This document shows, in pieces, positions 10,102-25,096 of a stretch of 64,000 nt of DNA. Position 1 is the first letter of the stretch. Each line of letters opens with the position of its first letter. A program made the position numbers and the translations under genes. The notes beneath the pieces were generated by a model. It was not told the DNA's origin and made no database searches. It saw only the letters and a list, made by a program, of their open reading frames with translations. The DNA comes from an uncultured Candidatus Saccharibacteria bacterium (GTDB lineage Bacteria > Patescibacteriota > Minisyncoccia > Phycocordibacterales > UBA9973), in assembly GCA_964484005.1 (NCBI GenBank), contig CAZADR010000001.1, positions 43,927-107,926 of the forward strand, given 5' to 3'.

Positions 10102-11376
10102 ATGCACTTCAAAATAGAAAAAAAATTAAAGAATAGCTTGGGTCGTGTTGGAGTGCTCACTACTCCTCATGGGGAAATTCATACTCCAGCTTTTGTGGCG
10201 GTGGGCACCAAGGCCACAGTAAAATCTTTGAACCCTGAGCAGGTAAAAGACGCGGGCACAGAAGTGGTGCTCGGAAATACTTATCATTTATATTTACAAC
10301 CTGGAGATGAGATAGTGCGAGACGCAGGGGGAATAGGTAAATTTATGAATTGGAAAGGTCCGACGATGACAGACTCTGGCGGTTTTCAGGTTTTCTCTCT
10401 CGGTGCGGCTTATGGAAAAGATATTTCAAAAGTCACAAAAATTACTGATCCTTCCCTCATGATTCCAGAGAGGTTTGATGACAGTGACGCTCCGAGATTG
10501 GCAAAGATAGGGCAAGACGGGGTTTCTTTTAAATCTCATCTTGATGGTTCTATACATTACATTACTCCAGAGAAATCAATTCAGATACAGCACAACCTCG
10601 GAGCAGATATAATCTTTGCTTTTGATGAATGCACTAGCCCAGCAGAAGACTTGCGGTATCAAGAAGAAGCCCTTGAGCGTACACATCGTTGGGCAGAGAG
10701 AAGTTTAGAAGAACACAAGAAACTAGCGCAGGCGAATGCTCTACGTCGTTCGCACTCTATCCTGAACACGCAAGAGCTTTTTGGTAGCAGCGAAGACTCC
10801 TACGAGCATTCGCCTGCGCTTTTTGGCATCGTGCAGGGAGGTAGGGAAGAGTCACTACGAAAAGAATCAGCAAATTTTTTGAAAAATTTGGATTTTGATG
10901 GTTTTGGCATTGGTGGAAGTTTTGCCAAAGAAGATATGTCCACAGCAGTAAAGTGGGTAAATGAAATTTTGCCAGAAGAAAAACCTCGGCACTTGCTCGG
11001 TATTGGTGAGCCCGAAGATTTGTTTATGGGCATAGAAAATGGTGTTGATTTATTTGATTGTGTTTTACCTACACGGCTCGGGAGAAACGGTACTCTCTAT
11101 ACCAAGAATGGAAAAATAATAATCATGAATACAAAATTCAGAACAGATTATTCTCCAATAGAAAAAGATTGTGAATGTTATACTTGTAAAAATTATACTC
11201 GTAGCTATGTGGCGCATCTTTTTCACGGCAAAGAAATGCTCGCAGGTACACTGTCTTCAATACATAACCTATATTTTATTGTTAATTTGGTAAAAAAAAT
11301 CAGACAGTCAATTTTAGACGACAATTTTTTCGAGTTTAAAGAAGAGTTTCTGAAGGGGTATTTATTAAAAAAATAA
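10102..11376 (+). CDS. tgt: Queuine tRNA-ribosyltransferase
   Basis: TPHGEIHTPAFVAVGTKA and VLGNTYHLYLQPG motifs. The zinc site CECYTCKNYTRSYVAHL is present. Confidence 0.9.
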   Translation: MHFKIEKKLKNSLGRVGVLTTPHGEIHTPAFVAVGTKATVKSLNPEQVKDAGTEVVLGNTYHLYLQPGDEIVRDAGGIGKFMNWKGPTMTDSGGFQVFSLGAAYGKDISKVTKITDPSLMIPERFDDSDAPRLAKIGQDGVSFKSHLDGSIHYITPEKSIQIQHNLGADIIFAFDECTSPAEDLRYQEEALERTHRWAERSLEEHKKLAQANALRRSHSILNTQELFGSSEDSYEHSPALFGIVQGGREESLRKESANFLKNLDFDGFGIGGSFAKEDMSTAVKWVNEILPEEKPRHLLGIGEPEDLFMGIENGVDLFDCVLPTRLGRNGTLYTKNGKIIIMNTKFRTDYSPIEKDCECYTCKNYTRSYVAHLFHGKEMLAGTLSSIHNLYFIVNLVKKIRQSILDDNFFEFKEEFLKGYLLKK

Positions 11377-11382
11377 TTCTTT

Positions 11383-11631
11383 TTATTTTAATTTAGATTC
11401 TAACTCGTCAACTCTTACTTTTAGTTTATTATGATCTTCATATTTGACTCGAGTTACAACAAAATCATCTATTCTTTTATTTGTACCTTCGAGTTGGTTT
11501 TTAACACCTTTTATTTCTTCTTTAACTTCATTAATTCTTGTATCAATTTTTTCTTCTACCTTAGAAAAACTTCTATTTATTGATTCAAGTAATTCTTTGT
11601 TTGTTATTTCCTTTTCTTTTTTATTAGTCAT
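11383..11631 (-). CDS. Small coiled-coil hypothetical protein
   Basis: ORF only, with charged heptad-like sequence. Confidence 0.3.
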   Translation of the reverse strand: MTNKKEKEITNKELLESINRSFSKVEEKIDTRINEVKEEIKGVKNQLEGTNKRIDDFVVTRVKYEDHNKLKVRVDELESKLK

Positions 11632-11858
11632 TTTATTTATTTTCTTGATTTAATAATTTATGTTTCTTTAAAAAATCCAGAATCGGTTTTCCGCATTTTG
11701 AACAAAAATCTTTATCCGCAAAAAGACCCATGCCAGCCTTTACGGGATCGCCTTCTAATTTCTTTTTGCAAATATCACATTTCCTAACATTAATCCCTAA
11801 AGTATATCACACTCTAAAAGTCTAGTTATCCCCACTTTTTCTCTACATTTCCCTTTGC

Positions 11859-11867
11859 GGGGGGGGG
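11859..11867. repeat. G9 homopolymer tract in the promoter region of the giant surface-fibre gene
   Basis: Nine consecutive G in a roughly 33% GC genome. It lies between a TTGCGG -35-like hexamer (11855-11860) and a TAAAAT -10-like hexamer (11876-11881), 38 nt before the ATG at 11905. Confidence 0.9.
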
Positions 11868-11904
11868 TTATATGTTAAAATATATAGGTTAGCGAAATAT
11901 TAAT

Positions 11905-14900
11905 ATGCTCAAGAAACCATTTATAAAAAGATTACTTTTTTCAAGCTTTTTTGGTTTGTCGTTTTTCTTTGTGTTTTTCTTTTCTGCCGTTAATCCTGTT
12001 TCTGCTTTTGATTTTAATTTTGATCTAAACTCTACTACAATCAAAGCTTCCACTTTGTCTGCCAATTTATCAGAAAATGCTTGGGATTTTTATGTTGTTA
12101 ATGTGGTAGAGCCAACTAATAATGTTTTACAAGAAGTAATTAATTTTTTTCTAGATTCAAATACTTACCAAGTTGTTTTGCCAGAAACTCCACTCCAAAC
12201 AGTTACTTCTTTTTTAAACAATACTTATAACTCTTATAACAATTACATCTTAAGACCAGGCGTAGCAGCTATTGAAAAATCAAATGTAACTTTTACAAAA
12301 ATAACTGACAATATTACAGTACCCAAAATTAGTGTTCCCAAGGTGGGCATGGTAGCAAATGTATCAAGTATTATTGATGGTGTAAACAATTTCAGTAACA
12401 CTCTCTTTTCTCTCTACGACGAATATGTCATTGATCCTTTGGCACAATTGTGGGGAGGGATATTTTTTAATATTTCAAATAATTTAAACAAAGTACCGCC
12501 AACATCGGTAGTAAAAATAGAAACTCCTCCAGCCAAAACAGAGATAGAGCCTAAGCCTCTATCTGGGTCTCCAATAGTTTACCTAAACAATAATCCTTCA
12601 ACCAATCGAGGTCTACAGGGTCCTCAAGGAATACAAGGACCAATGGGGCCACAAGGACCCACTGGCGAGAGAGGTTCATCTGGGAGTGACGGTAATACGA
12701 TAGACACCTCTTCCTTCGTCTCTGAAACTGATTTTGATAATCAAGTAAATGCCCTCTTAAATTCTATTGAAAATGGTCTGTCAGGTTTGTCTGAATCTAT
12801 CTCTGAAGAAGTCAATACAGATTTACTGACAGTAGCAGGCAATGCCACTATCGGTGGAGATTTGATGGTCAATGGGCAAGGAATATTTACCCGAGTTCCC
12901 ACTCTGGCTCATGCCTTCGCTCCTTCATGGCCACTCGGTGTTTCTAATGTTGCCGATGCCACTCTCTACATTAATCCTGCTTCTTCAGTAGCAAGTGGCA
13001 ACTTGATTGGCGCTGCCATAAACGGCACAGTAAAATTCATCGTTGATGCTGACGGAAATGTTTATGCCAATAATATGATCCTAAATGGGAGCGTCACTAG
13101 TGGCGCGACGACTGTTTCCAGTTTGTCGGTGTTGGACAATACTATCCTAGGAGATGCTGGCGTAGATACGATTACGGTAAATGGCAGAATTAATTCTGAT
13201 TTAACCTTTACGACTGACAACACCAATGATATCGGAGCAAGCGGTGTTAACAGAGCTAGGACTGGATATTTTGGTACTTCCATAATTTCTCCTGTAGTCA
13301 ATGCCACCACCGGCGTGCAAATTGCAGGTGCCGCCACGACCGGCACAATCCTGCGTGGCAACGGTACAAATTATGTGCCTACCACCGCCACTTTTGCTGA
13401 TACATACACAGCCAGCAATTTGCTCTATTCCAACGGCGCGAATACTGTTGCCGGTTTAGCGACGGCTAATAGCGGAGTCTTGGTTACTAATTCAACCGGA
13501 GTGCCATCTATTTTAGGTTCTATGACCAACGGTCAATTAGTGGTCGGCTCAACCGGCGCGACTCCTGTTTTGGCAACAATTACCGGTACCACCGATCAAA
13601 TCGTCGTTACTAATGGCGCGGGCACAATTACTCTTTCTATTCCGCAAAGCATTAATACCACTTCTACTCCACAATTTGCCAGATTGGGGGTCGGAGTCGC
13701 GGCGGACGCTACCAATATTCTGACCGCCACCTCCGCTTCCGCCACCGACCTTTCTAAAACTTTAAATATAACTCACACCGGAGCAATTACTGGTACAGGT
13801 TATGCCGGATACTTTACAAAAACTGGAGTATCTACAACAAATGTCGGCCTTTATGCTACTGCAACGGGAGCTACAAATAATTATGCGGCGATATTTGAGA
13901 ACGGCAACGTCGGCATCGGGACGACGAATCCGGGGGCGAAGTTGTCAATCAACACTGATTATTGGAATAACGCATATTTTCCCGCTGGTACGGTTATCGG
14001 TGCATATTTAGGTGCAGCGTATGCAGGATTTTTTGCTAGTGGTGCGGGCGATACTTCTAGAATAACATTAGGAAATGGAGGAACTGGGTATCAGAGTTAT
14101 ATAGAAAATTTAGCGGGAGGAGCTGGTAGTCTTAGTATTGTCAATAACAATGGCCCTGTTTTGTTTAGTGGAACCGGCAACGTCGGCATCGGGACGACGG
14201 CACCAGTTCAAAAACTTGATATGGTGGTTGGGGCGGGAGATGGTACTCAAAATGAAGCTGTTGGTATCCGCTTACGAAATACTTCTGTTGTTGGTAATAC
14301 AAACACTTTACAAATAGGTCTTAATTCTACATTTAATGCTGGTGCAGCACAGCCAGGCTATGGTTACCTTCAATCAGTTTATTGGGGAGGAAGTGTCAAT
14401 GCCCTGATTTTGAATCCTCAAGGTGGTCCAGTTACAGTTGGAACTGCTACTGATTTTAATCCAGGAGGATTTTTAGTAAAGGGAATTACTTTAGTTTCTT
14501 CTCCTACTCGTGCTGGAAATACTTTAATGGGAGGACTAGGTTTTACACATGGAGCAGGATATACACCTATTTCCGCTTCCATTTATGGAATCTATGATAA
14601 ATCTGTATGGTCTCAAGGTGCGGGTTTAGTATTTAATACAGTTTCAGGGGCAGATATTTCAGGTTCATCTGGTGTCGAGAGAATGAGAATTAGCTCAGAC
14701 GGCAACGTCGGCATCGGGACGACGGGGCCAGGGTCTCATCTTCAGATTGACGGTAATATTTCAGCAGCATCTTGGACTACCGATGGTATAGCTTTTGATT
14801 CTAACGCCGCCACTTTCACAGACACCAGTACAGCCGGAGCAGGAACTGTAGCCGTAAGAACCGCTAACAGTTTCGGAGCACCAACTTTCGCATCTACAAA

Positions 14901-15906
14901 CGCAATCACAGTAACTGACGCCTTCACTTTATATGTTCCCAAACCAATCGCTGGAACAAACACCACTATTACCAGAGCCAACTCTGCTTACTTTGAGGGG
15001 AATGTCGGGATTGGTCAAGTAGCACCAGCTTACGCCCTAGACGTCCTAGCCACCGGTACCGGAGTCATTGCTAGATTCAATAGTACCAATGCTACCGGTT
15101 GTACATTAGCTGATGGAGGAACCATCACCTGTACTTCAGATGTCAGAATGAAGAAAAACATAGAAGATATTACTTATGGTCTAGAAACCATCAAAGGTTT
15201 AAGACCCGTCTTATTCAATTGGAAATATGAAGATGATACTACTTCAAAAAACCTCGGTTTCATCGCTCAAGAAGTGGAAGCCCTAGTACCCAAACTCATC
15301 GCTACTGACGAAAACGGCATGAAGTCTTTAAATACCACCGCTATGATTCCTATTTTAACCAAAGCCATACAAGAAATGAATCTAAATCTTGAAGGAGTTG
15401 CAGGTACGATTACTCCGCTCGAAGCCTCTCCTAATGAATCTTTTGTCACTACTTTTTTTGATAATTTATTTAGCAAAGTTACCGTTTGGCTCGCTGATGC
15501 GGGGAATGGAATTGGTAAGATATTTACAACCGAAGTGGAAACCAAAAATCTCTGCGTCTCGGATGATAGCGGAGAAAAAACATGTATTACAAAATCACAG
15601 CTCGATGCCTTACTTTTAAATGCAACCGTCAGCCCTGCACCTGTGCCAGTACCCGAACCAATACCGGACCCTGTTCCAACTCCAACTCCAACTCCAACTC
15701 CTGATCCAACACCATTACCAGATCCTGTACCTGTAGTACCTCCGACATGTACTCTGCCTCAAGTCTTAGATACAACCACGAATACTTGCGTAGATCCCGC
15801 GCCAGTAATTCCGACTTGCACCCTGCCTCAAATTTTAGAAAATAATGTTTGTGTAGATCCTGTACCAACTCCACCTGCTGACACCACACCGCCAGTAACG
15901 CCATAA
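11905..15906 (+). CDS. Giant secreted tail-fibre-like surface protein with a collagen-like Gly-X-Y segment, repeated GNVGIGTT beta-structure units, a C-terminal peptidase_S74 intramolecular-chaperone autoprocessing domain, and a Pro/Thr-rich Cys-containing tail
   Basis: Signal peptide present. GLQGPQGIQGPMGPQGPTGERGSSGSDG is collagen-like. NVGIGTT(N/A/G)P recurs four times. SDVRMKKNIEDITYGLETIKGLRPVLFNW...GFIAQEVEALVP matches the endosialidase/tail-spike chaperone domain (S74). The C-terminus is PAPVPVPEPIPDPVPTPTPTPTPDP plus a TCTLPQ(V/I)L...C(V)DP motif twice. Confidence 0.85.
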   Translation: MLKKPFIKRLLFSSFFGLSFFFVFFFSAVNPVSAFDFNFDLNSTTIKASTLSANLSENAWDFYVVNVVEPTNNVLQEVINFFLDSNTYQVVLPETPLQTVTSFLNNTYNSYNNYILRPGVAAIEKSNVTFTKITDNITVPKISVPKVGMVANVSSIIDGVNNFSNTLFSLYDEYVIDPLAQLWGGIFFNISNNLNKVPPTSVVKIETPPAKTEIEPKPLSGSPIVYLNNNPSTNRGLQGPQGIQGPMGPQGPTGERGSSGSDGNTIDTSSFVSETDFDNQVNALLNSIENGLSGLSESISEEVNTDLLTVAGNATIGGDLMVNGQGIFTRVPTLAHAFAPSWPLGVSNVADATLYINPASSVASGNLIGAAINGTVKFIVDADGNVYANNMILNGSVTSGATTVSSLSVLDNTILGDAGVDTITVNGRINSDLTFTTDNTNDIGASGVNRARTGYFGTSIISPVVNATTGVQIAGAATTGTILRGNGTNYVPTTATFADTYTASNLLYSNGANTVAGLATANSGVLVTNSTGVPSILGSMTNGQLVVGSTGATPVLATITGTTDQIVVTNGAGTITLSIPQSINTTSTPQFARLGVGVAADATNILTATSASATDLSKTLNITHTGAITGTGYAGYFTKTGVSTTNVGLYATATGATNNYAAIFENGNVGIGTTNPGAKLSINTDYWNNAYFPAGTVIGAYLGAAYAGFFASGAGDTSRITLGNGGTGYQSYIENLAGGAGSLSIVNNNGPVLFSGTGNVGIGTTAPVQKLDMVVGAGDGTQNEAVGIRLRNTSVVGNTNTLQIGLNSTFNAGAAQPGYGYLQSVYWGGSVNALILNPQGGPVTVGTATDFNPGGFLVKGITLVSSPTRAGNTLMGGLGFTHGAGYTPISASIYGIYDKSVWSQGAGLVFNTVSGADISGSSGVERMRISSDGNVGIGTTGPGSHLQIDGNISAASWTTDGIAFDSNAATFTDTSTAGAGTVAVRTANSFGAPTFASTNAITVTDAFTLYVPKPIAGTNTTITRANSAYFEGNVGIGQVAPAYALDVLATGTGVIARFNSTNATGCTLADGGTITCTSDVRMKKNIEDITYGLETIKGLRPVLFNWKYEDDTTSKNLGFIAQEVEALVPKLIATDENGMKSLNTTAMIPILTKAIQEMNLNLEGVAGTITPLEASPNESFVTTFFDNLFSKVTVWLADAGNGIGKIFTTEVETKNLCVSDDSGEKTCITKSQLDALLLNATVSPAPVPVPEPIPDPVPTPTPTPTPDPTPLPDPVPVVPPTCTLPQVLDTTTNTCVDPAPVIPTCTLPQILENNVCVDPVPTPPADTTPPVTP

Positions 15907-16020
15907 AAAACATATTTTTGTATCACGAATAGCAGGTTGAACGTCCAAAAACACGGAAAGTAATGATATTTTAACCCCCGTGGGTCGTGATATGGTGCAA
16001 AACTGTGGTATAATATAAAA

Positions 16021-16380
16021 ATGGAAAAAGATGACGAAGTTGAATTACCTACGATTAATTGGCTTCCTCCTGATACCCCTCTGCAACAAACGATCGGAGA
16101 AAGTCGCATAGCGGACGCTTGTCAATATTGTAACTCTAAAAATTTCGTCAAGCGGGGCACTCGCCAGAATCAATATCAAAGTGTCCAGCTTTATTTGTGC
16201 AAAAATGAAGAATGTGGTCGCACTTTTACCGCACAAGACGTGAAAGGCAAACATTTTCCGTTGAATGTGGTGATTGAGGCTATGAGTTATTATAATCTTG
16301 GATTTTCATTAGAAGAAACTTGTAGGATTATAAAAAAGAAATTCAACGTAGCTCCGGATGCTGCGACTCTTGGAAGCTGA
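16021..16380 (+). CDS. Zinc-ribbon plus HTH protein with IS1 InsA-like architecture
   Basis: CQYC-x16-LYLCKNEEC zinc ribbon followed by a helix-turn-helix (VIEAMSYYNLGFSLEETCRII). GC content is about 45% against about 30% in the flanks. It ends at a TGA that is in frame with the next ORF. Confidence 0.55.
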   Translation: MEKDDEVELPTINWLPPDTPLQQTIGESRIADACQYCNSKNFVKRGTRQNQYQSVQLYLCKNEECGRTFTAQDVKGKHFPLNVVIEAMSYYNLGFSLEETCRIIKKKFNVAPDAATLGS

Positions 16381-16416
16381 GTAGACGAATACAAAGAACT
16401 TTGTCGCTATGAACGT

Positions 16417-17283
16417 TTGCGTCCATATGCAATAAAAATGTGCCAGCCAAAAGATACGATTGAAGTCGTCTCTATGGCGCATCGGCAACTTTACCGTTTT
16501 CGTTATCATCGTCCGAAAACCGCCCTAATGTTGACGGAATTTAAAAATCGCAACCTTCGTCGTTTGCAAGAATATTTGAACGCGGTTTCGAGTGAGACAC
16601 CGCACCAATATTTTCAGGACGGTGAGCGCATGAGCGATGTGCGGAGTAAGTTTAGCACCGCAGATATGATTGTAAAATCAAAAAATAATTATGCGAATCG
16701 ATTGGCAAAATTCGTCTTGCAGACGGTTTCTGAAAATAAGGCTCGCCATGAGGCGCTCCAGCGGTTTTTTATTGCGAATGATTCCTGTACGGTGGCGACG
16801 GAAGTGCCGGTGTATATCAGGAGAGAAGATGTGGAACATATGGAAAACGTGCTGAAGTTTAAGGTTGTCGGAGAGAGTGGACTTGAGTTTAAAGGGAAAA
16901 AAGAGGGACAGCTGCCAAAAGGCAATTCAACATCGGCAGCTCTACGCAGCCTACCTCGGCTGCTAACTGGACACATTGATCTTGTGCAGATAAGGAATGG
17001 TCAAGTTCACATTATGGATTACAAGCCGAATGCGGCTAAAGAGCGCCCCATCGAACAGCTCACATGGTATGCGTTAGCGCTTTCACGCCTCACCGGTCTG
17101 CGGCTTTTTGAATTCACTTGCGCCTGGTTTGATGAAAAAGATTATTACCAATTTTTTCCGTTGCATGTGGTAAAAAAATTGCAAACTAAAGCAATAAAAC
17201 CACGGAAGCGTATAATAAACTTTAAAGATGGCACTAAAGTCGAGGTACCGAGGGAAAATCCGGGGAAAGTCATAATTGTTTAA
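16417..17283 (+). CDS. RecB/Cas4-like PD-(D/E)xK nuclease-domain protein
   Basis: The C-terminal half carries GHIDLV (D), MDYK (D-x-K) and QLTWYALAL (QxxxY), in the order typical of RecB-family nuclease domains. It shares a frame with 16021-16380, separated by a single TGA. GC is elevated. Confidence 0.5.
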   Translation: MRPYAIKMCQPKDTIEVVSMAHRQLYRFRYHRPKTALMLTEFKNRNLRRLQEYLNAVSSETPHQYFQDGERMSDVRSKFSTADMIVKSKNNYANRLAKFVLQTVSENKARHEALQRFFIANDSCTVATEVPVYIRREDVEHMENVLKFKVVGESGLEFKGKKEGQLPKGNSTSAALRSLPRLLTGHIDLVQIRNGQVHIMDYKPNAAKERPIEQLTWYALALSRLTGLRLFEFTCAWFDEKDYYQFFPLHVVKKLQTKAIKPRKRIINFKDGTKVEVPRENPGKVIIV

Positions 17284-17818
17284 TTTTATGGATAAAAAAT
17301 GGGATAAAACAAAAAATGAATATGTAGGAGGGTATAAACCATCGGGTAGTTTTGGTAGCGGGAGTTACAAAAAATCGTTTACGCCAAAACGTCCAGTCAA
17401 AACTTTTCGCGATTTGGATGTCTACCAAGGAACCGTGGAATGTTCAGTTTTGATTACAAAAAATATTGCCCCCGCTCTCATCAAGTTGAAATATGCTTAC
17501 GGAGAGCGCTTGAGTGATTGTGCACTCGCCGTTCCGCTTTTCATTGCCGAATCGCACTCGCTCCGTTTTGCAGATTTTGCGCTCGGTGTCGGTTATTTGG
17601 AAAAAGCAATGTCGGCATCGAATAAAATGGTCGTGTATTTGGAACATGCCAAAGGAATTTACGGCGCCAAACTCGACCAAAACCTGATTGAAGATATTAT
17701 CGGGAGGTATGTGAGCTGTCGCATAAAAATGTTTCATTTGGAAAAATCTTGGAAGCGTTTTCGGACAGAATACGGCGACGAGAAAAAGGAAAAAGGAGCA
17801 GGCGGATTTAAATACTAG
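17276..17818 (+). CDS. Four-helix-bundle protein (23S rRNA intervening-sequence protein / Avd-like family) with a G/S/K-rich N-terminal extension
   Basis: FRDLDVYQ...AESHSLRFADFALGVGYLEKAM...YLEHAKGIYG fits the TIGR02436 pattern (FRDL-V-WQ). Confidence 0.55.
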   Translation: MFNFMDKKWDKTKNEYVGGYKPSGSFGSGSYKKSFTPKRPVKTFRDLDVYQGTVECSVLITKNIAPALIKLKYAYGERLSDCALAVPLFIAESHSLRFADFALGVGYLEKAMSASNKMVVYLEHAKGIYGAKLDQNLIEDIIGRYVSCRIKMFHLEKSWKRFRTEYGDEKKEKGAGGFKY

Positions 17819-17829
17819 TTGATTTATTT

Positions 17830-19305
17830 ATGAAGCAAAAATCAATTGTTTTTACCCCAACTTTGTTTTACGAATATGCGATTTGTCCACACTGGATTTG
17901 GCACGATCGTTTCAGCGATCCGAAAGAAAAAGGCGAAATGCCCGAGCTATCTTTGCGGTTGTTTGAACAAGGTGTACTGCACGAAAAAGATTATATAAAA
18001 GACCTGATATTTACTCAAGTTAAAGCAGTTAATTTGAAGGTGGCGTTTACACAGACTATGAGCTTAATGCAAGCAGGTGCAGAGCTCATATATCAAGGAG
18101 TTATCCAATTTGAACAAGATGGCATTTTATATCAAGGCCGTCCCGATTTACTTAAAAAAGTATCGGGAAAATCTAAATTTGGAGATTACTATTACCAACC
18201 GATAGATATTAAATCAACAAAAGAGATAAAAACTGAACATGAATATCAGTTAATTTTTTACGGATTAGTTTTAAAACATGTTCAAGGAATATTCCCCAAT
18301 GAAGCAGCTATTATTAATAAAGATAAAAAAACTGTTTTGTTTTCAATGAGTGAGGAAGAACAACGAAAAACAATAGGGCATATGAAAGAAATTATAGCTG
18401 TTTTAGAGGGTAATAAACCACTCTTGAAATTGGTTTCCAGTTGCAAAGACAGCCCTTGGTATAAAAAATGCGTGTCTGAAGCGGAAGCCAAGAATGACAT
18501 TGCTTTACTATATCATTTGGACTCTCGAGCTTATCCAACCTTACGCGCTTATGGCATTAACACGGTAGCGGAAGCAGCTAATATGGATATTGCCACGCTC
18601 CCTAAAATTCCGTATGCTAGTCGGGAAACCTTGGAGAGAGTCAAGTTGCAAGCAGAGAGCCTTTTGGAAAACAAACTTAAGTGGATAGCCAAACCAGTAT
18701 TATCTAACGCCAAGTTGAAAATCTTTTTTGATATTGAAGGCGATCCACTATTGCAGACTCAATATATGTTTGGTTTTTGGATTTCTGGCGATCCAGAGTT
18801 TAAATATGCTCAAATTGGTCACGTTCGGAAACATAAAGACGAAGGTAAATACTTTCTATACTTTTTAGCCGAAGACCCAAGCGAAGAAGAAATGATGTGG
18901 AAACAATTTTTACAATGGCTGGATATTTTACCTAATGATGATTACGCAATATTTCACTATGCCAAATATGAAAAAATATGGACCCAAAAACTGAAGGAAA
19001 AATATGGCGGGTCCAAAAAGTTCACAGAGTTTCATTCAAAACTATTTGACCTAGAAGATGCACGCAAAGAATCAGTTATCTTTCCTCTTTATTTTTATTC
19101 CATTAAAGACATCGCTAAGTCAAAATTTGTCAATTTTAAGTGGCGACATGAGAAAGCAGGTGGCGCTCAGAGCATCTTTTGGTATGAAAAGTGGTTGGAA
19201 GAAGTGAATTGTGATGTTCTTAATGATATAATTGATTACAATGAAGATGACGTCAGAGCGACCGAGTTTTTCTATCTTTGGTTAAAAAACTATTGCATTT
19301 TTTGA
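17830..19305 (+). CDS. RecB-family nuclease of the TM0106 type with a C-terminal RNase-H-like (YprB-like) domain
   Basis: N-terminal Cys motif YEYAICPHWIWHD. GRPDLL (D), IDIKS (D-x-K) and QLIFYGLVL (QxxxY). The C-terminal FFDIEGDP segment resembles an RNase-H-fold exonuclease motif. Confidence 0.6.
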   Translation: MKQKSIVFTPTLFYEYAICPHWIWHDRFSDPKEKGEMPELSLRLFEQGVLHEKDYIKDLIFTQVKAVNLKVAFTQTMSLMQAGAELIYQGVIQFEQDGILYQGRPDLLKKVSGKSKFGDYYYQPIDIKSTKEIKTEHEYQLIFYGLVLKHVQGIFPNEAAIINKDKKTVLFSMSEEEQRKTIGHMKEIIAVLEGNKPLLKLVSSCKDSPWYKKCVSEAEAKNDIALLYHLDSRAYPTLRAYGINTVAEAANMDIATLPKIPYASRETLERVKLQAESLLENKLKWIAKPVLSNAKLKIFFDIEGDPLLQTQYMFGFWISGDPEFKYAQIGHVRKHKDEGKYFLYFLAEDPSEEEMMWKQFLQWLDILPNDDYAIFHYAKYEKIWTQKLKEKYGGSKKFTEFHSKLFDLEDARKESVIFPLYFYSIKDIAKSKFVNFKWRHEKAGGAQSIFWYEKWLEEVNCDVLNDIIDYNEDDVRATEFFYLWLKNYCIF

Positions 19306-19356
19306 CTTTTAATAAGTGTGGGGGTATACTAAATCCTGTTTTTAATTTTTAACCCA

Positions 19357-20766
19357 ATGCCGAATAAAAAAATAAAAAACTCAAAGAGACCACAGAAGAA
19401 TTGGAAAAAGTTTTGGAAGCTAGGAGCTGATGAATTTAACACTCAGTATTTTGGAGTGAATAAAGACGGCGAGCTCACTGCGACTGAAGGTCATCACATT
19501 TATAATTTAAATGACATAGCTCATAAATTTGGTACACCTCTCCAAGTTATTTTTCCTTTTATTATAGAAGACAGACTCAAGGACTTGATTGGATATTTCC
19601 AAGCCTATATGAAGATTTATGGCTATAAAGGAAAGTTCTTTTATCACTATCCAATGAAGGTAAACCAAAATAAAGAATTTATCCTTCCGCTTCTTTCTGA
19701 AGGCGCAAACTTGGAAGTAACTTCTGCTAACGAGCTTTGGTTGGTAAAAAAGCTTTGGGAAGGAGAAAAATTTAATAGTAAGATTCGAGTACTATGTAAC
19801 GGTCCAAAGACACATCAATATTTAGATTTGATAGAAGAATTACGAGGGAAGGGAATGAACATTGTGCCTATTATAGAATCCAACGAAGAGATAGAGAGAA
19901 TATTAAAACATAAAGGAGATGTAGGGGTGCGAATAGATATGGACATCAAGGCGGACACACACTGGGACAAGAAATTTGACCGTTTTGGTCTTTCAGAAAA
20001 AGATGTTTTGGGTTTGGGTAAAATAAAAAATTTAAAAATACTTCATTATCACCTTGGTTCACAAATAAAAACACAAAAAAGTATTTTAGATGGAATCAAG
20101 CATGCTTTTAGTATTTATACACAACTTCAAAAGACTCATCCTACTTTAGACACTTTGGATATTGGTGGGGGATTTGGTATTCCTTATGAAAAGAAAAAGT
20201 TTTATACCGCTAAGGGTGTTTCTAGTAAAATAATTAAAGTATTAAAAAATTTGTCAGATAAGGCTGGTATTAGACATCCAAACCTAGCAGTAGAATGGGG
20301 ACAATATATAGTGGCTCCTGCACAGATAACGATCTACAAAGTTATTTCTAAAAAAATAATTCCAAAAGCCAACGCCAGAGCTTGGTACATTGTAGATGGA
20401 AGTTTCATGAATGATCTCAAGGATACTTGGGCGATACACCAGAAATGGCACATTATACCTGCAAACAATATGCATGGTGCACTGAAGACCGTGTGGCTCG
20501 CTGGGAGTACTTGTGACTCGGATGATAAATATACAGCTGGAGGAAATTATATTTTAATGCCAAAGCTTCATAATGAAAAAGAAGATCAGCTAGTGGCTAT
20601 CTTTGATACAGGCGCATACCAAGACGGACTCGCTTCTCATCACTGCCTACTCGCAGCACCTCTTAAGATAATAGCTCAGGACGGAATGATAAAAATTGCT
20701 CGTAAGCGTGAAAATGCTGAATCTATTGGTAAACTTTTTGGTTGGACTAATGGAGATCATAAATAA
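19357..20766 (+). CDS. speA: PLP-dependent Orn/DAP/Arg decarboxylase-family enzyme, most like a short biosynthetic arginine decarboxylase
   Basis: FGTPLQVIF, HYPMKVNQN, EVTSANEL, HYHLGSQI...LDIGGGFGIPY and GSTCDSDD motifs match the fold-III decarboxylase / SpeA pattern. Confidence 0.6.
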   Translation: MPNKKIKNSKRPQKNWKKFWKLGADEFNTQYFGVNKDGELTATEGHHIYNLNDIAHKFGTPLQVIFPFIIEDRLKDLIGYFQAYMKIYGYKGKFFYHYPMKVNQNKEFILPLLSEGANLEVTSANELWLVKKLWEGEKFNSKIRVLCNGPKTHQYLDLIEELRGKGMNIVPIIESNEEIERILKHKGDVGVRIDMDIKADTHWDKKFDRFGLSEKDVLGLGKIKNLKILHYHLGSQIKTQKSILDGIKHAFSIYTQLQKTHPTLDTLDIGGGFGIPYEKKKFYTAKGVSSKIIKVLKNLSDKAGIRHPNLAVEWGQYIVAPAQITIYKVISKKIIPKANARAWYIVDGSFMNDLKDTWAIHQKWHIIPANNMHGALKTVWLAGSTCDSDDKYTAGGNYILMPKLHNEKEDQLVAIFDTGAYQDGLASHHCLLAAPLKIIAQDGMIKIARKRENAESIGKLFGWTNGDHK

Positions 20767-20769
20767 AAT

Positions 20770-21243
20770 ATGAAAAATTTTAAACAGCTATTTTCTCACG
20801 ATTCGCGTTCTATCTTTTTTAAGATTTCCTTTTTTTTAGTTATTTTTTTATTTTTTATTTTTTATTTTTCTCAAAAATCTGGAGAGATTAAAATAGTAAA
20901 AATTGCAGGGCAGGAAATAAGGGTAGAATTAGCAAGAACACCAGAAGCTCAACAGCAAGGGTTGAGTGGCAGAGAAAGCTTAGAGGATAATACTGGAATG
21001 TTGTTTGTTTTTGAAAACCCAGGTATATATTATTTTTGGATGAAAGACATGAAATTTCCCATTGACATGATTTGGATTAATGAAGAACAAAAAGTGGTTC
21101 ATATAAAAAAGAATGCAAAACCAGAATCATTTCCTGAAAGTTTTGGAAATGATGAAAATGCAAAATATGTTTTAGAAATTCCTGCCGGTTTTTCTGATAC
21201 GAATAATCTAAAAGAAGGGGACAGTGTTATTTTTACATATTAG
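20770..21243 (+). CDS. DUF192 (COG1430) domain protein with an N-terminal membrane anchor
   Basis: ELARTPEAQQQGLSGRESLEDNTGMLFVF...FWMKDMKFPIDMIW matches the DUF192 signature. Confidence 0.7.
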   Translation: MKNFKQLFSHDSRSIFFKISFFLVIFLFFIFYFSQKSGEIKIVKIAGQEIRVELARTPEAQQQGLSGRESLEDNTGMLFVFENPGIYYFWMKDMKFPIDMIWINEEQKVVHIKKNAKPESFPESFGNDENAKYVLEIPAGFSDTNNLKEGDSVIFTY

Positions 21244-21257
21244 AAATTTAGCAAAAG

Positions 21258-21295
21258 AAAATCCCCCACTTTTGGTAGGGGATTTTCGTTTTTTA
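21258..21295 (+). terminator. Rho-independent terminator
   Basis: aatccccc-acttttggta-ggggatt followed by ttcgtttttt. Confidence 0.5.
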
Positions 21296-21297
21296 CA

Positions 21298-21709
21298 GGT
21301 ATCTATAAGCCGAATTTTGTATTTAATGCCAAAGCATTATAGATAGCAATTTATCTAGGCCTGAAATTGCTCTCAGGCTCAAGCGATTCTCCCCCACACC
21401 TTTCGGAATGATGCGCATTTGCGCGTTGCTTTTAGCAACTTCATTCTGAAAGGTGTGGGGGCACGATCTTGCACAGAGGTAAGGGTTTAGCCGTTTCACC
21501 CTTCGACTTCGCTCAGGGCAAGCCCTAAGTTTATATGAAGATTTATCCATTTCTGGATACCCTAACCCTTTCGAGTTAAGACGTCTCTGCTCGCACCTAT
21601 GTATCACTACATACGGGGGTTACCCGCTACCATTCCCATCTCTTTCGAGACTCGCTGTGTTCGGACTTTCCTCTATATAGCTTGCGCCATATAGTAGCTA
21701 TCCGATACC
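21298..21709 (-). ncRNA. rnpB: RNase P RNA, bacterial type A, with an extended perfect hairpin insertion
   Basis: The minus strand carries AGGAAAGTCCGAAC (P4 5' strand), AGCGGGTAACCCCCG, AAGGGTGAAACGGC, GCTTGAG and GCAATTTCAGGCCTAGATAAATTGC (the CCUAGAUGAAUG region), and ACAAAATTCGGCTTA (P4 3' strand). A P1 pairing ggtatc/gatacc joins the ends. Confidence 0.8.
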
Positions 21710-21816
21710 TGCAAGGGTATTATACAACGCTTGCTTTATTTATTCAAGTATGATATACTATGTTTGTGAGTGTGAGGTTGTTCTCACATTTTTAAATAGA
21801 CAACATAAGTGCCGCA

Positions 21817-21848
21817 AAAGACGCCCCTCGGGGCGTCTTTTGTTTTGT
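21817..21848. terminator. GC-rich hairpin with a U-tract between the rnpB 5' side and the next plus-strand gene
   Basis: aaagacgcccc-tcg-gggcgtcttt followed by tgttttg. Confidence 0.4.
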
Positions 21849-21893
21849 ATGGGCTTAACTTGCAGAACAGGGTGAGGGTGTTATAATTTAAGT

Positions 21894-22106
21894 ATGAAAA
21901 TAGAATCATCGAATTTAAACGAGAATATTAATTGGACCAAGACTTACAGGAAGCTAATAGAGGATTTGCGAACTAGAGCTAAACAGGAAGGAAGAAACCC
22001 AGATCAAGTGGTGAGAGAGCTTAGCGAAGAAGCTCAAAAAGACTTAGTTTCAAAGCAAGCACTCGAAGAAACATCTCTTAGTGTAGCGAAAGGGCTAAAT
22101 CATTAA
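21894..22106 (+). CDS. Small hypothetical protein (70 aa)
   Basis: ORF only, charged and helical. Confidence 0.3.
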   Translation: MKIESSNLNENINWTKTYRKLIEDLRTRAKQEGRNPDQVVRELSEEAQKDLVSKQALEETSLSVAKGLNH

Positions 22107-22134
22107 TATTTAAAAAATAAAGAATAAATACATC

Positions 22135-23727
22135 ATGTTGAAAAAAATAAATTTCTCTAGCACAGGTAAACTTCTTCTTTTTTTATTTATAATTTTACCT
22201 TTTCTTTTTCAAGGAAATACTCAAACTTTCGGACAAACTGTTTCGGGTTGTACTTCTTCTGGACCATATAACACGATTACAGGCGAACTTTGTAATACTG
22301 GAACTGCGAGTGGGTGTCTCCCTGGTTATTTATTTAGCTCAACGACAGGTAAGCTTTGTCCAGTTGTAACTTCTACCACTCCACCATCAACTCCTTCTGT
22401 GGGTTCTTTGGCAACCTTGAACTATGTAAAAGATTTATTGAGAATTAGATCTACATATCAATATCCTCAATTTATATATGGAGCTACTGTGGCAAATAAC
22501 AAATTTATATTTAGAGGGAAAGGTTGTTTGCAAAATATGGCAAATACGGGTACTGGTGGAGGTGTGTGGATTGCATCAGAAGATGGTTCCACTATTACTG
22601 AAAGAGATACTTGCATGGATGCTGGTGCGCCACAAAGAAATAGAGGTGCTTCTTTTCACGGACAGACTACTTCTGGTAATATCTTTTTAAACTGGAGTGG
22701 AGATGGATTTGTTAAGGAAAATATTTCTGCCGGTCCCGAAGAGGCAAATCACGCTGTGTATTATAGTAAAGCTGGAATTCCTAGATCATCTTCTCCTTTG
22801 CACCTTTATAATAATGATTTAATTGTTTTAAAAAATAGAATACTTGCACCCAATTCTCGTAGGGATTATTCTTCCCGTGATTTAATAAGCTTGCCCGACT
22901 GGAAACTTATTGGGACTGCCGCTGTTCCTTCCGGATTTGAAGGAAGAAGTTTTTCTGGTTTTGGTTTTGGTGATTTTATGGTTTATCCTGTTGATGGATC
23001 TCTTTTCTCAGTTTCCAAAACTGGTGAAATTAAAAAAATCAAAAATCTTCCAAGTGCTGAACATATTTATCGTATTGGAAATTCCTTAAGTTATGGTTTT
23101 GACTATTCCACGACACCAGCAAAGCTTGCTGTTATGGAGGTCAATAGATCATATGTTGTGGGTCAACAATTTGCTAATAATCGTAAAATATCCGTTTACA
23201 AGCTTTCTTTGGGTGGTGTAACTTTAGACAAAGTAATTAATCTTCCAGATGATGATGCTTTTCCATCAGTGAGAGGAGATTATGCTTTGAACAGTTTTGG
23301 AATTTGGGGTGATTATGTTGTAGTAGGAGCTCAGGATAGAAGTTATAAGTTCCACGAACTTCAACTTTGGAAGGGGGGTCAAAAAATACACACTCTTACA
23401 ATAAACAACGAAGCTGCTCCAGACCACATATTAATTTCTAAAAATGGATATGTGGCAACTTCAATGTGGTCAAGTACATTTAAAGTTCTTGGAGAATTAA
23501 ATGATGATGGACAACCTAAAACTGAAGGAGGAACAGCAGCCATTCTTTATAAAATTAAAGTACCTACCTCAAATACAATTCCAATTCCAGGGCCAGGAGG
23601 CATTCCGGTGGATGTAAATTGTGACAATGCTTCAGGTAGCTTGGCTGATCTTTGTAAGCAGTATAAAGAGATATTAAGAAAAACCTGTCTTGTGGCTCCA
23701 AATATTGCTATTTGTCAGAATCAGTAA
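22135..23727 (+). CDS. Secreted hypothetical protein (530 aa) with an N-terminal Cys-spaced repeat
   Basis: Signal peptide. Repeats CTSSGPYNTITGELC / CLPGYLFSSTTGKLC. No enzymatic motif recognised. Confidence 0.55.
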   Translation: MLKKINFSSTGKLLLFLFIILPFLFQGNTQTFGQTVSGCTSSGPYNTITGELCNTGTASGCLPGYLFSSTTGKLCPVVTSTTPPSTPSVGSLATLNYVKDLLRIRSTYQYPQFIYGATVANNKFIFRGKGCLQNMANTGTGGGVWIASEDGSTITERDTCMDAGAPQRNRGASFHGQTTSGNIFLNWSGDGFVKENISAGPEEANHAVYYSKAGIPRSSSPLHLYNNDLIVLKNRILAPNSRRDYSSRDLISLPDWKLIGTAAVPSGFEGRSFSGFGFGDFMVYPVDGSLFSVSKTGEIKKIKNLPSAEHIYRIGNSLSYGFDYSTTPAKLAVMEVNRSYVVGQQFANNRKISVYKLSLGGVTLDKVINLPDDDAFPSVRGDYALNSFGIWGDYVVVGAQDRSYKFHELQLWKGGQKIHTLTINNEAAPDHILISKNGYVATSMWSSTFKVLGELNDDGQPKTEGGTAAILYKIKVPTSNTIPIPGPGGIPVDVNCDNASGSLADLCKQYKEILRKTCLVAPNIAICQNQ

Positions 23728-23742
23728 AAGTTAACATAATTA

Positions 23743-23774
23743 AAAACACCCTGTTTAAACAGGGTGTTTTTAAT
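23743..23774. terminator. Bidirectional terminator between the 530-aa gene (+) and tRNA-Ala (-)
   Basis: aacaccctg-tttaaa-cagggtgtt flanked by T/A runs on both sides. Confidence 0.55.
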
Positions 23775-23776
23775 TA

Positions 23777-23852
23777 TGGTGGACCTGAGGAGACTCGAAC
23801 TCCTTACCCCCTCATTGCAAATGAGGTGCTCTACCAGATGAGCTACAGGCCC
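23777..23852 (-). tRNA. tRNA-Ala (anticodon UGC), CCA encoded
   Basis: The reverse complement reads GGGCCTGTAGCTCATCTGGTAGAGCACCTCATTTGCAATGAGG...GGAGTTCGAGTCTCCTCAGGTCCACCA. Confidence 0.9.
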
Positions 23853-23934
23853 TTAAGAACACAAAGATATTCTAACTTATTTTACCAATAATGCAAATCT
23901 TTTGGATATCTTTTTTATAGTGTACAATTGCGAA

Positions 23935-24969
23935 ATGCGTTATAAATTCTTTACTAATTCTGAAAAGGCCTGGCGAGCTATGTTTGATGTTATAAAAGAC
24001 GCAAAAAAGTCTGTCTATCTCGAGATGTATATTTTTGAAAATAACATGGTGCAATACGACTTTTTGATGTTATTAAAGAAAAAAGCTGAAAGTGGAACTC
24101 GGGTGAGGATAGTGTTAGATTCTTTTGGAAGTGCTGGATTAAATAAAATAGATATAGCTTCTTTGAAGGAAAGTGGTGCAGAGATTTTTTTCTTTAGTCA
24201 TTTTTTACACAGAATACACCGAAAGATTTTGGTGATTGATGAAAAGATTGCTTTTATAGGCGGAGTAAATTTTCACCAAATTTCTAGACGTTGGAATGAT
24301 TTGACGGTACAAGTAAAAGAGGGGAAACTCGTATTGTCTATTATTGGGTCTTTTGCGAAGGTGTACAGAGAGTGCGGAGGAAGGGATCCAATAATTCTTG
24401 CTCAAAACAAAAGTTTGGTTTTAGATAAGACACACACTTGGCTGATAGAACATTTTCCAATAAGAAACAAAGCAAGTTTGAAAAGGATTTATAAGAAAAA
24501 TATAAGAAAAGCGCAGATGAATATAATTTTAGCGACTCCTTATTTTATGCCTAGGCATTGGATGATAGCAGTTCTTCACCAAGCAGTCTTGCGAGGTGTA
24601 AGGGTGGAGGTTTTGGTACCCAGAATTACAAATCATTACTGGGTAAATCGTGTTAATTATTTTTTTATGTTTAAACTTTCGAAACTTGGAATTAATTTCT
24701 ATTTAGAACCAAAAATGAATCATGCCAAAGTTATGGTTGTTGATAATAAAGAAGGGATTATGGGTTCTCATAATTTAGATTTTCTTTCTTTTGAAATAAA
24801 CTCTGAAGTCGGGATATTTTTAAAAGATAAAGATGCAGTACAAAAGCTCGTGCAAATCATGACAGATTGGAAAAAAGATGCAGTTCTTTTTGATGCCCCA
24901 AATTATAAGCCTAAAATTATAGATTATATTTTGTCTCCAATAATTAGTCTTTTCTTGAAGATTTTCTAA
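23935..24969 (+). CDS. Phospholipase-D-family protein with two HKD motifs (cardiolipin-synthase / Nuc-like)
   Basis: HRKILVIDEKIAFIGGVNF and HAKVMVVDNKEGIMGSHNLD, i.e. two HxK(x)4D(x)6G motifs. Start moved to an internal Met. Confidence 0.75.
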   Translation: MRYKFFTNSEKAWRAMFDVIKDAKKSVYLEMYIFENNMVQYDFLMLLKKKAESGTRVRIVLDSFGSAGLNKIDIASLKESGAEIFFFSHFLHRIHRKILVIDEKIAFIGGVNFHQISRRWNDLTVQVKEGKLVLSIIGSFAKVYRECGGRDPIILAQNKSLVLDKTHTWLIEHFPIRNKASLKRIYKKNIRKAQMNIILATPYFMPRHWMIAVLHQAVLRGVRVEVLVPRITNHYWVNRVNYFFMFKLSKLGINFYLEPKMNHAKVMVVDNKEGIMGSHNLDFLSFEINSEVGIFLKDKDAVQKLVQIMTDWKKDAVLFDAPNYKPKIIDYILSPIISLFLKIF

Positions 24970-25022: not shown

Positions 25023-25096
25023 TCCGGGGTAGCTCAGCGGTAGAGCGGTCGCCTGTTAAGCGATTGGTCGTAGGTTCGATCCCTACCCCCGGAGCA
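25023..25096 (+). tRNA. tRNA-Asn (anticodon GUU); serves as an integration site
   Basis: TCCGGGGTAGCTCAGCGGTAGAGCGGTCGCCTGTTAAGCGAT...GTAGGTTCGATCCCTACCCCCGGAGCA. The last 14 nt overlap the 3' end of the serine recombinase ORF on the opposite strand. Confidence 0.9.

Follow-up and report, generated by a model that had tools for sequence, protein, structure and literature searches.

In the 64,000-nt window analyzed here (assembly GCA_964484005.1, contig CAZADR010000001.1, positions 43,927 to 107,926 of the forward strand, from an uncultured Candidatus Saccharibacteria bacterium), positions 15919-17818 were occupied by one cassette composed of an approximately 80-nt leader, gene A (encoding a nuclease with a zinc ribbon), and gene B (encoding a predicted four-helix-bundle protein). 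A and B constituted a two-gene unit of a family spread over the Parcubacteria/Paceibacteria and lacking an earlier description. This unit is best read as an ancient homing-endonuclease-type cassette, possibly domesticated: in about three of ten related loci, A-B was found inside split inteins that broke giant fiber genes, while in the window it stood outside any intein. Coordinates given with no locus number are those of the window.

A conserved gene pair behind giant fiber genes

The neighborhood survey covered 80 loci of GTDB species representatives plus five loci from two look-ups (loci are numbered with the prefix L); their open reading frames (ORFs) were called, clustered, and labeled by the window proteins. 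The gene order was near-constant and on one strand: a large fiber-like gene, none to a few small genes, A, and B. Of the 75 GTDB loci whose sequence extended far enough (600 nt or more), 71 had B 3′ of A. A gene like the window fiber gene S lay 5′ of A in at least 43 of the 52 sufficiently long loci, although the contig end usually truncated it. The same fiber–A–B picture, with or without intein halves, recurred in metagenome contigs. The genes 3′ of B were housekeeping genes and partly syntenic, and some genomes held two copies of the cassette. In the closest relative, L006, the order was S, NYN, A, B, decarboxylase, and DUF192, with the TM0106-family gene of the window (see below) absent; its A, B, and decarboxylase were 89.7%, 88.1%, and 87.9% identical to those of the window, respectively.

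In the window, every gene of the ORF list between 11905 and 21243 was on the plus strand. Gene S (11905..15906, plus strand) encoded a 1333-aa giant surface/tail-fiber-like protein, which contained an N-terminal hydrophobic segment, a collagen-like G-x-y run (with a Collagen match), GNVGIGTT repeats, a Peptidase_S74 chaperone domain at aa 1078-1131 (PF13884, 2.7e-14), and a Pro/Thr/Cys-rich tail ending in ..VTP*. Intein-free fiber ORFs very often ended with T-P-TAA; these ends lay within a linker rich in Pro and Thr and preceded box 1 of the leader by 7-150 nt (window 15898-15906, L006, L008, L010, L014, L015, L035, L069, L080, and others), and insertion of the cassette may have supplied the stop codon of the fiber ORF.

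In many loci, the slot before A was filled by various small genes: PemK/MazF-like genes with no visible antitoxin (21 loci), NYN, RelE-like, and Bro-N genes (the last in 10 loci), genes for ordinary PF05635 proteins (17 loci), and a 165-aa family of no known kind (examples at L006:1736-2236, L059:1057-1479, and L052:9003-9848). Homologs of the IS200-like Y1 transposase were located near 22 loci.

Gene A and its nonsense codon

Gene A (16021..17283, plus strand) had 420 codons and encoded a zinc ribbon, a helix-turn-helix (HTH), a middle domain, and a Cas4/RecB-like PD-(D/E)xK nuclease. It appeared in the ORF list as ORF1 (16021-16380, the N-terminal part) and ORF2 (16417-17283, called from TTG 16417, the C-terminal part), which had been annotated as two genes. 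These two ORFs shared one frame and were parted solely by an in-frame TGA at 16378..16380 (...AATLGS*VDEYKEL...), replacing the TGG codon of a tryptophan (Trp120, W120) that was invariant in the alignment of 24 homologs; therefore, ORF1 to ORF3 and their downstream neighbor ORF4 represented three genes and not four. The joined A, with Trp at the stop, matched 1868 proteins, and among the 120 matches listed the homologs were single ORFs, mostly of 390-480 aa, with 65-88% identity and 92-100% query cover. An exact look-up of ORF2 from TTG 16417 gave no record, the start having been placed elsewhere by gene callers.

At least 10 contigs, drawn from six read sets, encoded the identical 119-aa truncated product and were 100% identical to the window over 3.4 kb including TGAGTA; the stop thus represented a genuine allele in a single clonal population rather than an error of assembly, and the six independent read sets also ruled out sequencing error as its cause. 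Reassignment of TGA to Trp or Gly was rejected as well: ORFs were long under translation table 11 and used TGG codons for Trp, TGA was an ordinary if rare stop in this genome (42 TAA, 11 TAG, and three TGA among 56 called ORFs), and reading the terminal TGA of the TM0106-family gene as sense (table 4) added only nine residues. This strain can therefore make only the 119-aa zinc-ribbon/HTH fragment plus any read-through or re-initiation product. Disrupted copies of A occurred sporadically elsewhere (L042, L253, L224, L243, L244, and L247).

The domain assignments of the first-pass annotation for both parts of A held. The zinc ribbon (CxxC...CxxC, IS1/IS1595 type; 16120..16233, plus strand; residues 34-71) matched NF050000 with an E value of 3.6e-7 (30.6 bits against a cut-off of 28), and C34, C37, C60, and C65 were invariant in the 24-sequence alignment. 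The nuclease domain matched PF12705 (E 5.7e-6), and its active-site block GHID...DYK...QLTWY was readable at 16969..17070 (plus strand; residues 317-350): H318, D320, D333, K335, Q346, and Y350 were invariant in 24 sequences, the equivalent residues were invariant in 111, and the motifs were retained in full-length relatives at 30-44% identity. The best structural neighbors of the nuclease were Cas4, SSO0001, AddA, and NucS.

The A family comprised 2272 clusters among 1.84 billion representatives in a profile search. Searches of A in NCBIfam, PADLOC, and PHROGs returned generic domain matches only, the family profile had no match among PDB sequences, and no curated family or solved structure covering the family was found, nor any paper in the searchable literature; the combination of genes had likewise been called unrecognized at first pass. 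A soil subfamily of A (P0266 type, GC about 0.54; L216-L247) had neither B nor a fiber gene and adjoined genes for a Replic_Relax protein, a HerA/TrwB-like ATPase, and a large serine recombinase (L219:75-5965 and L239:8001-12747), a neighborhood like that of an integrative (mobilizable) element. These A-alone contexts, together with the near absence of the family from IMG/VR, indicated that the family as a whole resides in cellular genomes, in settings that are or once were mobile, and not in phages.

Gene B

Gene B (ORF3; 17288..17818, plus strand) encoded 176 aa from ATG 17288, with an alternative start at TTG 17276; public assemblies call the 176-aa form. B had 212 matches, its family was tightly conserved and displayed the N-terminal signature FRDL.VYQ. 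Window B itself had no Pfam match, while 27 of the 53 aligned homologs matched PF05635 (best 6.2e-6). The AlphaFold2 (AF2) model of B consisted of a four-helix core (residues 45-166, pLDDT above 90) and a disordered N-terminus rich in Lys, Gly, and Ser, and in a Foldseek search its best PDB entries were 2rld and 2gsc (PF05635) and the Avd protein of diversity-generating retroelements (DGRs; 8ub7/8ub8), with TM scores of 0.82-0.85. By model and family matches, B belonged, as a divergent subfamily, to the superfamily of PF05635/23S-rRNA intervening sequence (IVS)/Avd four-helix bundles, the fold that had been proposed for it from the letters. PHROGs, PADLOC, and NCBIfam gave nothing for B, and its family profile had only chance Cro matches among PDB sequences.

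Split inteins around A-B in related loci

In nested loci (e.g., L003, L049, L063, L081, and L084), the fiber gene was split into two co-oriented ORFs by the two halves of an intein: (i) the upstream fiber ORF ended with ...Q|CVTGDTRLRRRR...GDEI.SL...VYEL.T.SGR.IRTT.NHPYL (blocks A and B of the N-terminal intein part, Int-N; short form in relatives Q|CVTGDT...TxNHP), followed by a stop; and (ii) the ORF after B started with ...W.KVS.L..G.EIAVP...WDEI.SI..VG.E.VYDIEVEGTHNF.GN.IFAHN|TY... (blocks F and G of the C-terminal part, Int-C, with a Thr nucleophile). In all nine loci tested with Pfam, the ORF after B opened with the C-terminal intein part and continued with S74 or Ig-like domains. According to hidden Markov models (HMMs) run over six frames, both Int-N and Int-C were present in 22 of the 85 loci, and three more had one half, being cut by the contig end. 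This arrangement was that of a fractured gene, a host gene interrupted by a split intein whose halves enclose a free-standing endonuclease gene (Dassa et al. 2009, PMC2677866).

Other loci showed further configurations. Int-N and A were in one ORF in L019, L023, L028, L029, and L043, and L017:2-1798 was a single ORF running from the end of Int-N through a GIY-YIG domain into A. L032:1025-2299 encoded a contiguous 425-aa intein in the fiber gene, its endonuclease insertion point being occupied by an in-frame NYN (PIN-like) domain, and A-B of this locus sat after the stop of the fiber gene. Elsewhere this slot was taken by free NYN genes; an intein with NYN as its nuclease domain seems unusual. 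Inteins inside A, a candidate from Hint and GIY-YIG tags on P0087 and P0054, turned out to be upstream Int-N/GIY-YIG segments fused to A.

In a neighbor-joining tree of A, nested loci fell into at least five clades beside un-nested sisters, and the clade of the window was wholly un-nested. The Int-N and Int-C HMMs had no match in six frames over the whole window; S was complete with its own S74 domain and tail, and no fragment of a fiber gene was found 3′ of B. The window thus held the leader–A–B cassette outside intein halves, and its locus was a relative of the fractured-gene loci and not a member of them.

Vertical inheritance and base composition

A-B was inherited vertically under strong purifying selection. 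A was more conserved than most neighboring genes. Compared to L006, synonymous divergence (dS) was saturated (1.0-1.8), the ratio of nonsynonymous to synonymous divergence (dN/dS) was 0.063 for A and 0.075 for B, and both halves of A were constrained, so that the nonsense mutation of A must have arisen recently compared with the divergence from L006. Strong purifying selection, operating in intein-free loci too, indicated that A-B was probably useful to the cell or kept by homing within populations.

The region had been described as a GC-shifted cassette of about 45% GC between flanks of roughly 30%, and this description had to be corrected in part. The cassette GC was indeed raised (0.40-0.44; A 0.40-0.44 and B 0.41, against a window mean of 0.356), as were the GC contents at third codon positions (GC3) of ORF1 (0.34), ORF2 (0.44), and ORF3 (0.41), other host genes having about 0.15-0.38 and mostly 0.20-0.34. 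The left flank did not conform to the described 30%: 12400-16000, i.e., the S gene region, had a GC of 0.43-0.52, due to the second codon positions of S (GC2 0.49, GC3 0.316) and thus reflecting amino-acid composition. Across 82 loci, GC3 of A correlated with that of its neighbors (r = 0.82, range 0.18 to 0.75), while total GC of A was less variable than host GC, so the shift was mostly the footprint of a rigid protein in an AT-rich genome; in the window it consisted partly of amino-acid composition plus a modest GC3 excess. Recent horizontal transfer as its cause was rejected, since GC3 tracked the host, dS was saturated, identity tracked that of flanking genes, and the flanks were syntenic. 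A repeat search of 11000-20500, inverted repeats in the flanks having been named as a check at first pass, disclosed no terminal inverted or direct repeats bounding the cassette beyond chance.

The leader element

The leader (15919..15997, plus strand) was a conserved non-coding element of about 80 nt with three boxes: box 1 (15921-15933, plus strand; TATCACGAATAGC), box 2 (15960-15969, plus strand; GTAATGATAT, across loci GT(C/A)(G/A)TGA(G/T)AT), and box 3 (15985-15994, plus strand; TCGTGATATG). Box 1 was an inverted repeat of boxes 2 and 3, giving one inverted and two direct copies of the core CGTGA(T/G)AT. A 160-nt alignment upstream of A looked unconserved, because the leader lay at variable distance from A, and the element was then found from a match between the window and L013. 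Besides the window copy, 41 distinct instances were identified in other loci, all on the plus strand, and in every locus checked the leader followed the stop of the fiber or Int-N ORF and preceded the cargo genes and A, forming the left edge of the cargo–A–B block. Its terminal ATG (15992) was the start codon of A in seven other loci and opened an 8-codon ORF in the window.

Box 3 overlapped the -35 hexamer of a predicted TG-extended promoter (15987..16014, plus strand; GTGATA, 16 nt, TG-TATAAT), which was a consensus match only. The fold of the leader was unremarkable (z = -0.69); Rfam gave nothing in or next to the cassette when the window was scanned at the gathering threshold, and nothing in 15800-16100 at E<=1. 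By analogy with fractured genes, the leader may be an RNA hairpin masking a start codon; equally likely is a DNA operator with three sites for an InsA-like DNA binder.

A 21-nt word in the fiber genes

S contained three exact copies of a 21-nt word (GGCAACGTCGGCATCGGGACG, encoding GNVGIGT) at 13903..13923, 14176..14196, and 14701..14721 (all plus strand), against zero expected. In loci of less than 40% GC, each of the seven codons of the word was GC-ending in 77-94% of cases against a background of 13-24%, so that the codon choice hardly depended on host GC. The constraint on the word was at the DNA level, not at the protein level. In 0.97 Mb of related loci, 408 near-matches were counted. Variants of the word occurred in either orientation and in each of the three frames, within poorly conserved loops of A and B as well as of the intein halves and unrelated proteins (peptides GN(I/V)G(S/T)GT, RP.A(D/E)(I/V), A(I/T)SA.GR, RQSRHGD, and VPVP.LP; loops among L003-L085, e.g., L012:1808-1900, L014:2948-4279, and L080:8940-8960). 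L080 had one variant within a 1104-aa, RpoB-size protein of the c35 family. The in-frame variants look like a small mobile or templated insert.

Two candidate roles of the word were unsupported: (i) a link with the presence of A, as the exact word occurred in more than 120 IMG/VR contigs and neither A nor B was encoded in any of the 80 that were fetched (L086-L165); and (ii) a single intein homing site, as there were at least two junction contexts and the junction-side word was degenerate. Two independent Logan contigs of this strain ended exactly at 14701, and three GTDB contigs (L005, L023, and L061) began at base 1-2 of the word; such breaks may reflect either an effect of k-mer repeats or mosaicism among strains whose junctions coincide with the word.

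The TM0106-family neighbor and other features of the window

The TM0106-family gene (ORF4; 17830..19305, plus strand) encoded 491 aa with a Cas4-like nuclease, a helix-hairpin-helix, and an RNase-H-like domain. As annotated at first pass, it was of the TM0106 type, matching TIGR03491 with 292.7 bits against a cut-off of 97.45 over model positions 7-462 of 462, as well as PF13482 and PF01930 in Pfam. Its GC3 was host-like (0.329). The gene adjoined A-B solely in the window, L031, and L066, and a DUF2779 relative directly followed B in L040, L048, and L067; these six of 86 loci were from distant lineages and, by a rough estimate, above the chance level of about 0.25%. The TM0106 copies were 72% identical where A was 60-67% identical. 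The neighbor was thus separate, of host composition, and outside the conserved unit, which consisted of A and B only and not, as first proposed, of two RecB nucleases flanking an Avd-like protein; a loose functional link between A-B and TM0106, e.g., in break processing, is possible.

Genes for an arginine/ornithine decarboxylase-type enzyme and a DUF192 protein (Pfam) followed 3′ of the TM0106-family gene. The ORFs scanned in 7013-24969 encoded a class II tRNA synthetase, MreB, MreC, TGT, S, A, B, the TM0106-family protein, the decarboxylase, the DUF192 protein, a function-unknown protein, and PLD; in agreement with the first-pass annotation, no reverse transcriptase, DDE transposase, or recombinase was found among them.

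Further away, a large serine recombinase gene (25083-26642, minus strand; Resolvase + Recombinase + Zn_ribbon_recom) abutted tRNA-Asn (25023-25095) and was followed by two ORFs with no Pfam match (26688-27245 and 27624-30041); this region may be an integrated element. Three RNA features were detected, namely a bacterial class A RNase P RNA (21290-21713, minus strand; 116.8 bits), accounting for a GC peak at 21250-21700, and two LOOT RNA motifs (RF03000, 74-76 bits; 30165-30293 and 37859-37976). Two minus-strand ORFs of foreign composition with no Pfam match were located within 45079-47012: 46401-47012 (GC 0.57, GC3 0.80, stop TGA) and 45079-45837 (GC 0.47).

Comparison with known systems

The nested loci resembled fractured genes in four respects: the host gene was broken into adjacent co-oriented ORFs carrying blocks A/B and then F/G (HN|T), the nuclease gene sat at the canonical endonuclease insertion point in 22-25 related loci, an inverted-repeat element lay just 5′ of the nuclease gene, a parallel to the hairpins that precede the free-standing endonuclease genes of fractured genes (PMC2677866), and the stop of the upstream ORF and the start of the downstream ORF were at the cassette edges. 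They differed from fractured genes in several others: (i) the host gene encoded a giant surface/fiber protein of cellular bacteria of the candidate phyla radiation (CPR), not a phage enzyme of DNA synthesis or repair; (ii) the nuclease was a 400-470-aa zinc-ribbon/HTH/Cas4-like protein and not of the Vsr-like (EDxHD), HNH, or GIY-YIG type; (iii) an Avd-like B was present as a second gene, often with extra cargo; and (iv) A-B showed RpoB-like vertical conservation and occurred free of inteins, as in the window.

A restriction-endonuclease-like fold, as in A, is also that of the intervening-sequence endonucleases I-Ssp6803I (PD-(D/E)xK) and I-Bth0305I (EDxHD/Vsr-like). A had no detectable sequence or family match to them, however, and it carried a conserved middle domain and a long N-terminal zinc-ribbon/HTH module. 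With Cas4/RecB (PF12705 and PF01930), A shared the nuclease core and its motifs D...D-x-K...Q-x3-Y; in contrast to Cas4, this core was fused to an IS1-type DNA-binding module and A had no cas genes among its neighbors. The fold similarity was real, while A lacked a match to the Cas4 equivalog TIGR00372 and only weakly matched the PADLOC Cas4 model (E 0.018). In PADLOC-DB v2, A matched the Aga_Cas4-like_Nuc domain only (6.3e-5), the TM0106-family protein had generic Cas4 matches, and ORF1 and B gave nothing.

B shared the fold of Avd/23S-rRNA-IVS proteins in its predicted structure (TM 0.82-0.85 to 2rld and 8ub8 chain C). Unlike the Avd of DGRs, it was partnered with a nuclease and formed a separate subfamily with K/G/S-rich tails. 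There was no reverse transcriptase domain in the ORFs of 7013-24969 and no DGR template/variable repeat pair in 11000-20500, where only GNVGIGTT word repeats and short chance matches were found; the Avd fold of B alone does not make a DGR. With IS1 InsA, A shared the layout of CxxC..CxxC plus HTH, and the 119-aa truncated product was InsA-like, while an InsB/DDE part and IS1 inverted repeats were absent and the IS1 transposase model (transpos_IS1) scored 20.1 bits against 100. Yeast HO is a domesticated intein-type LAGLIDADG homing endonuclease with a zinc-finger DNA-binding domain; by analogy only, A may be compared to HO in its intein link, its zinc-dependent DNA-binding module, and its selection in the host, while the folds differ.

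Interpretation

A mobile-element ancestry of A-B was supported, in keeping with the mobile half of the earlier proposal of a defense or mobile module; a transposon or a recent import was not. About an even chance is given to the reading that A is a site-specific homing-type DNA endonuclease and B its accessory, the unit being kept by a benefit to the cell or by continuing homing. The zinc ribbon and HTH of A would read a DNA site that the D...D-x-K...Q-x3-Y center would cut, B would be an oligomeric accessory binding A and/or nucleic acid, and the three CGTGA(T/G)AT boxes of the leader would limit expression, either as an operator or by sequestering the start codon in a hairpin; in this strain, the change from TGG to TGA truncates A after its DNA-binding part. 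In favor of the homing reading are the domain make-up of A, the fold of B, the constant gene order, the split-intein nesting with its Int-N–A fusions, and the leader with an inverted repeat close before the nuclease gene; in addition, GIY-YIG and NYN nucleases shared the intein slot with A-B, the nested state was scattered over the A tree among un-nested sisters, and an A-alone subfamily resided in mobile contexts.

Several observations weigh against it. No intein was found in 60 of the 85 loci, the window included; the extein junctions presented at least two contexts (...KLHVEGQ|TYINGNVGIGTT and ...PG.E.Q|TY.L(K/R)A) and not one invariant site; and no target site is known for A. Selfish homing endonucleases usually decay after fixation, while A was as conserved as core genes: its identity was 69 against 66% for GAPDH, and 67 against 69 and 66% for RpoB and RpoC, respectively, in same-locus pairs; it correlated with the identity of flanking families (mostly r 0.5-0.99, three giving 0.18-0.46); dN/dS ranged over 0.05-0.10 with saturated dS; and GC3 of A followed that of the host. 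The nuclease fold was nearest to the processing nucleases Cas4, AddA, and NucS and not to characterized homing endonucleases, and no homing endonuclease is known to have an Avd-like partner. Just one weak relative of A was found in the viral contigs of IMG/VR, although the published fractured genes are mainly from phages. Boxes 1 and 3 of the leader were complementary in 95% of cells and their covariation was not significant (49 of 500 shuffles), because the boxes hardly vary.

In the main rival explanation, A-B would be a cellular (domesticated) pair with no homing at all, i.e., a sequence-specific nuclease or regulator for expression, repair, or recombination of the fiber locus or for general DNA/RNA processing, with the split-intein nesting a secondary accident in which an operon partner was caught in the endonuclease slot of an intein. 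RpoB/GAPDH-like conservation, vertical inheritance, host-like GC3, and low dN/dS agree with such a pair, as do the intactness of A-B in most intein-free loci, the fiber gene of L032 having its own contiguous intein while A-B followed its stop, and the near absence of the family from viral contigs. An accident accounts poorly, however, for the in-frame Int-N–A fusions, for the cassette lying exactly at the canonical insertion point in at least 22 loci of at least five clades, for the use of the same slot by GIY-YIG and NYN nucleases, and for distant relatives in integrative-element-like contexts; besides, the nonsense allele was shared by six samples, which shows that A can be dispensed with, if only for a short time, and a purely cellular role is regarded as somewhat unlikely. 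Unlikely, and more so, is a domesticated, HO-like endonuclease acting on the fiber locus, in which the near-invariant zinc ribbon and HTH of A would recognize the leader boxes or the GGCAACGTCGGCATCGGGACG word, itself as invariant and recurring along the giant fiber genes. If this were true, breaks at the word would drive gene conversion or module shuffling between fiber-gene cassettes, the system would be a nuclease-based diversity generator with an Avd-like partner and no reverse transcriptase, and this strain with its nonsense codon in A would be a natural loss-of-function control.

A toxin-immunity/addiction or abortive-infection pair, with A as a DNase toxin and B as its four-helix-bundle inhibitor (for which the colicin DNase immunity proteins provide a model), retained since loss of B would be lethal, would fit the tight coupling of A and B as overlapping or adjacent ORFs, the PemK/MazF-like, RelE-like, and NYN genes gathered in the slot before A, and the weak PADLOC matches to Argonaute-associated Cas4-like nucleases. 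It is improbable, as no PADLOC system was matched (B having no match at all), addiction modules are patchy and horizontally mobile, in contrast to the RpoB-like vertical conservation of A-B across the class, and the fixed place behind fiber genes and inside inteins would be unexplained; the disrupted A beside an intact B in this strain fits loss of a toxin but does not prove it. Marginally less credible still is A as a PD-(D/E)xK transposase or recombination-promoting nuclease (TnsA-like or Rpn-like) moving leader–A–B as a small transposon: the IS1 InsA-like zinc ribbon and HTH, with HTH matches to the DNA-binding domains of Tc3, mariner, and Mu, the discrete cassette with its conserved left-end element of repeated 8-9-nt boxes, and the two copies in some genomes point that way, but the cassette had no matching right-end repeat, no terminal inverted repeats, and no target-site duplications that could be seen, its location was essentially of one fixed kind, its flanks were syntenic, its phylogeny was vertical, and the score of the IS1 transposase model was far below its cut-off (20.1 bits against 100). 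The module proposed by the first-pass annotation, taken here as a recently acquired four-gene defense or mobile system in which ORF2 and the TM0106-family protein cooperate around the Avd-like protein, could draw on the co-oriented genes, with gaps of at most 12 nt between A, B, and the TM0106-family gene in the window, and on the six of 86 loci with TM0106 or DUF2779 beside A-B. It is very improbable: TM0106 was absent in 80 of 86 loci and of host composition in the window, the nearest relative had B directly before the arginine decarboxylase gene, ORF1 and ORF2 were one gene, there was no sign of recent acquisition, and PADLOC gave generic Cas4-like domain matches only.

Significance

A gene pair with neither a name nor an assigned function matches the subunits of RNA polymerase in conservation throughout a large class of CPR bacteria, and it is tied to the giant surface fibers that these episymbiotic cells probably use for host contact. 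The fractured-gene arrangement, so far that of DNA-metabolism enzymes and mainly of phages, is extended to a cellular surface protein and to a new nuclease family, and an Avd-type protein is for the first time linked to a nuclease instead of a reverse transcriptase. Split inteins and a probably very specific nuclease of this family may serve as tools. Four stages stand side by side in these genomes, namely (i) a contiguous intein with an in-frame nuclease, (ii) an Int-N–nuclease fusion, (iii) a split-intein cassette, and (iv) an intein-free cassette as in the window, and this series makes the origin of split inteins and of domesticated homing endonucleases directly testable.

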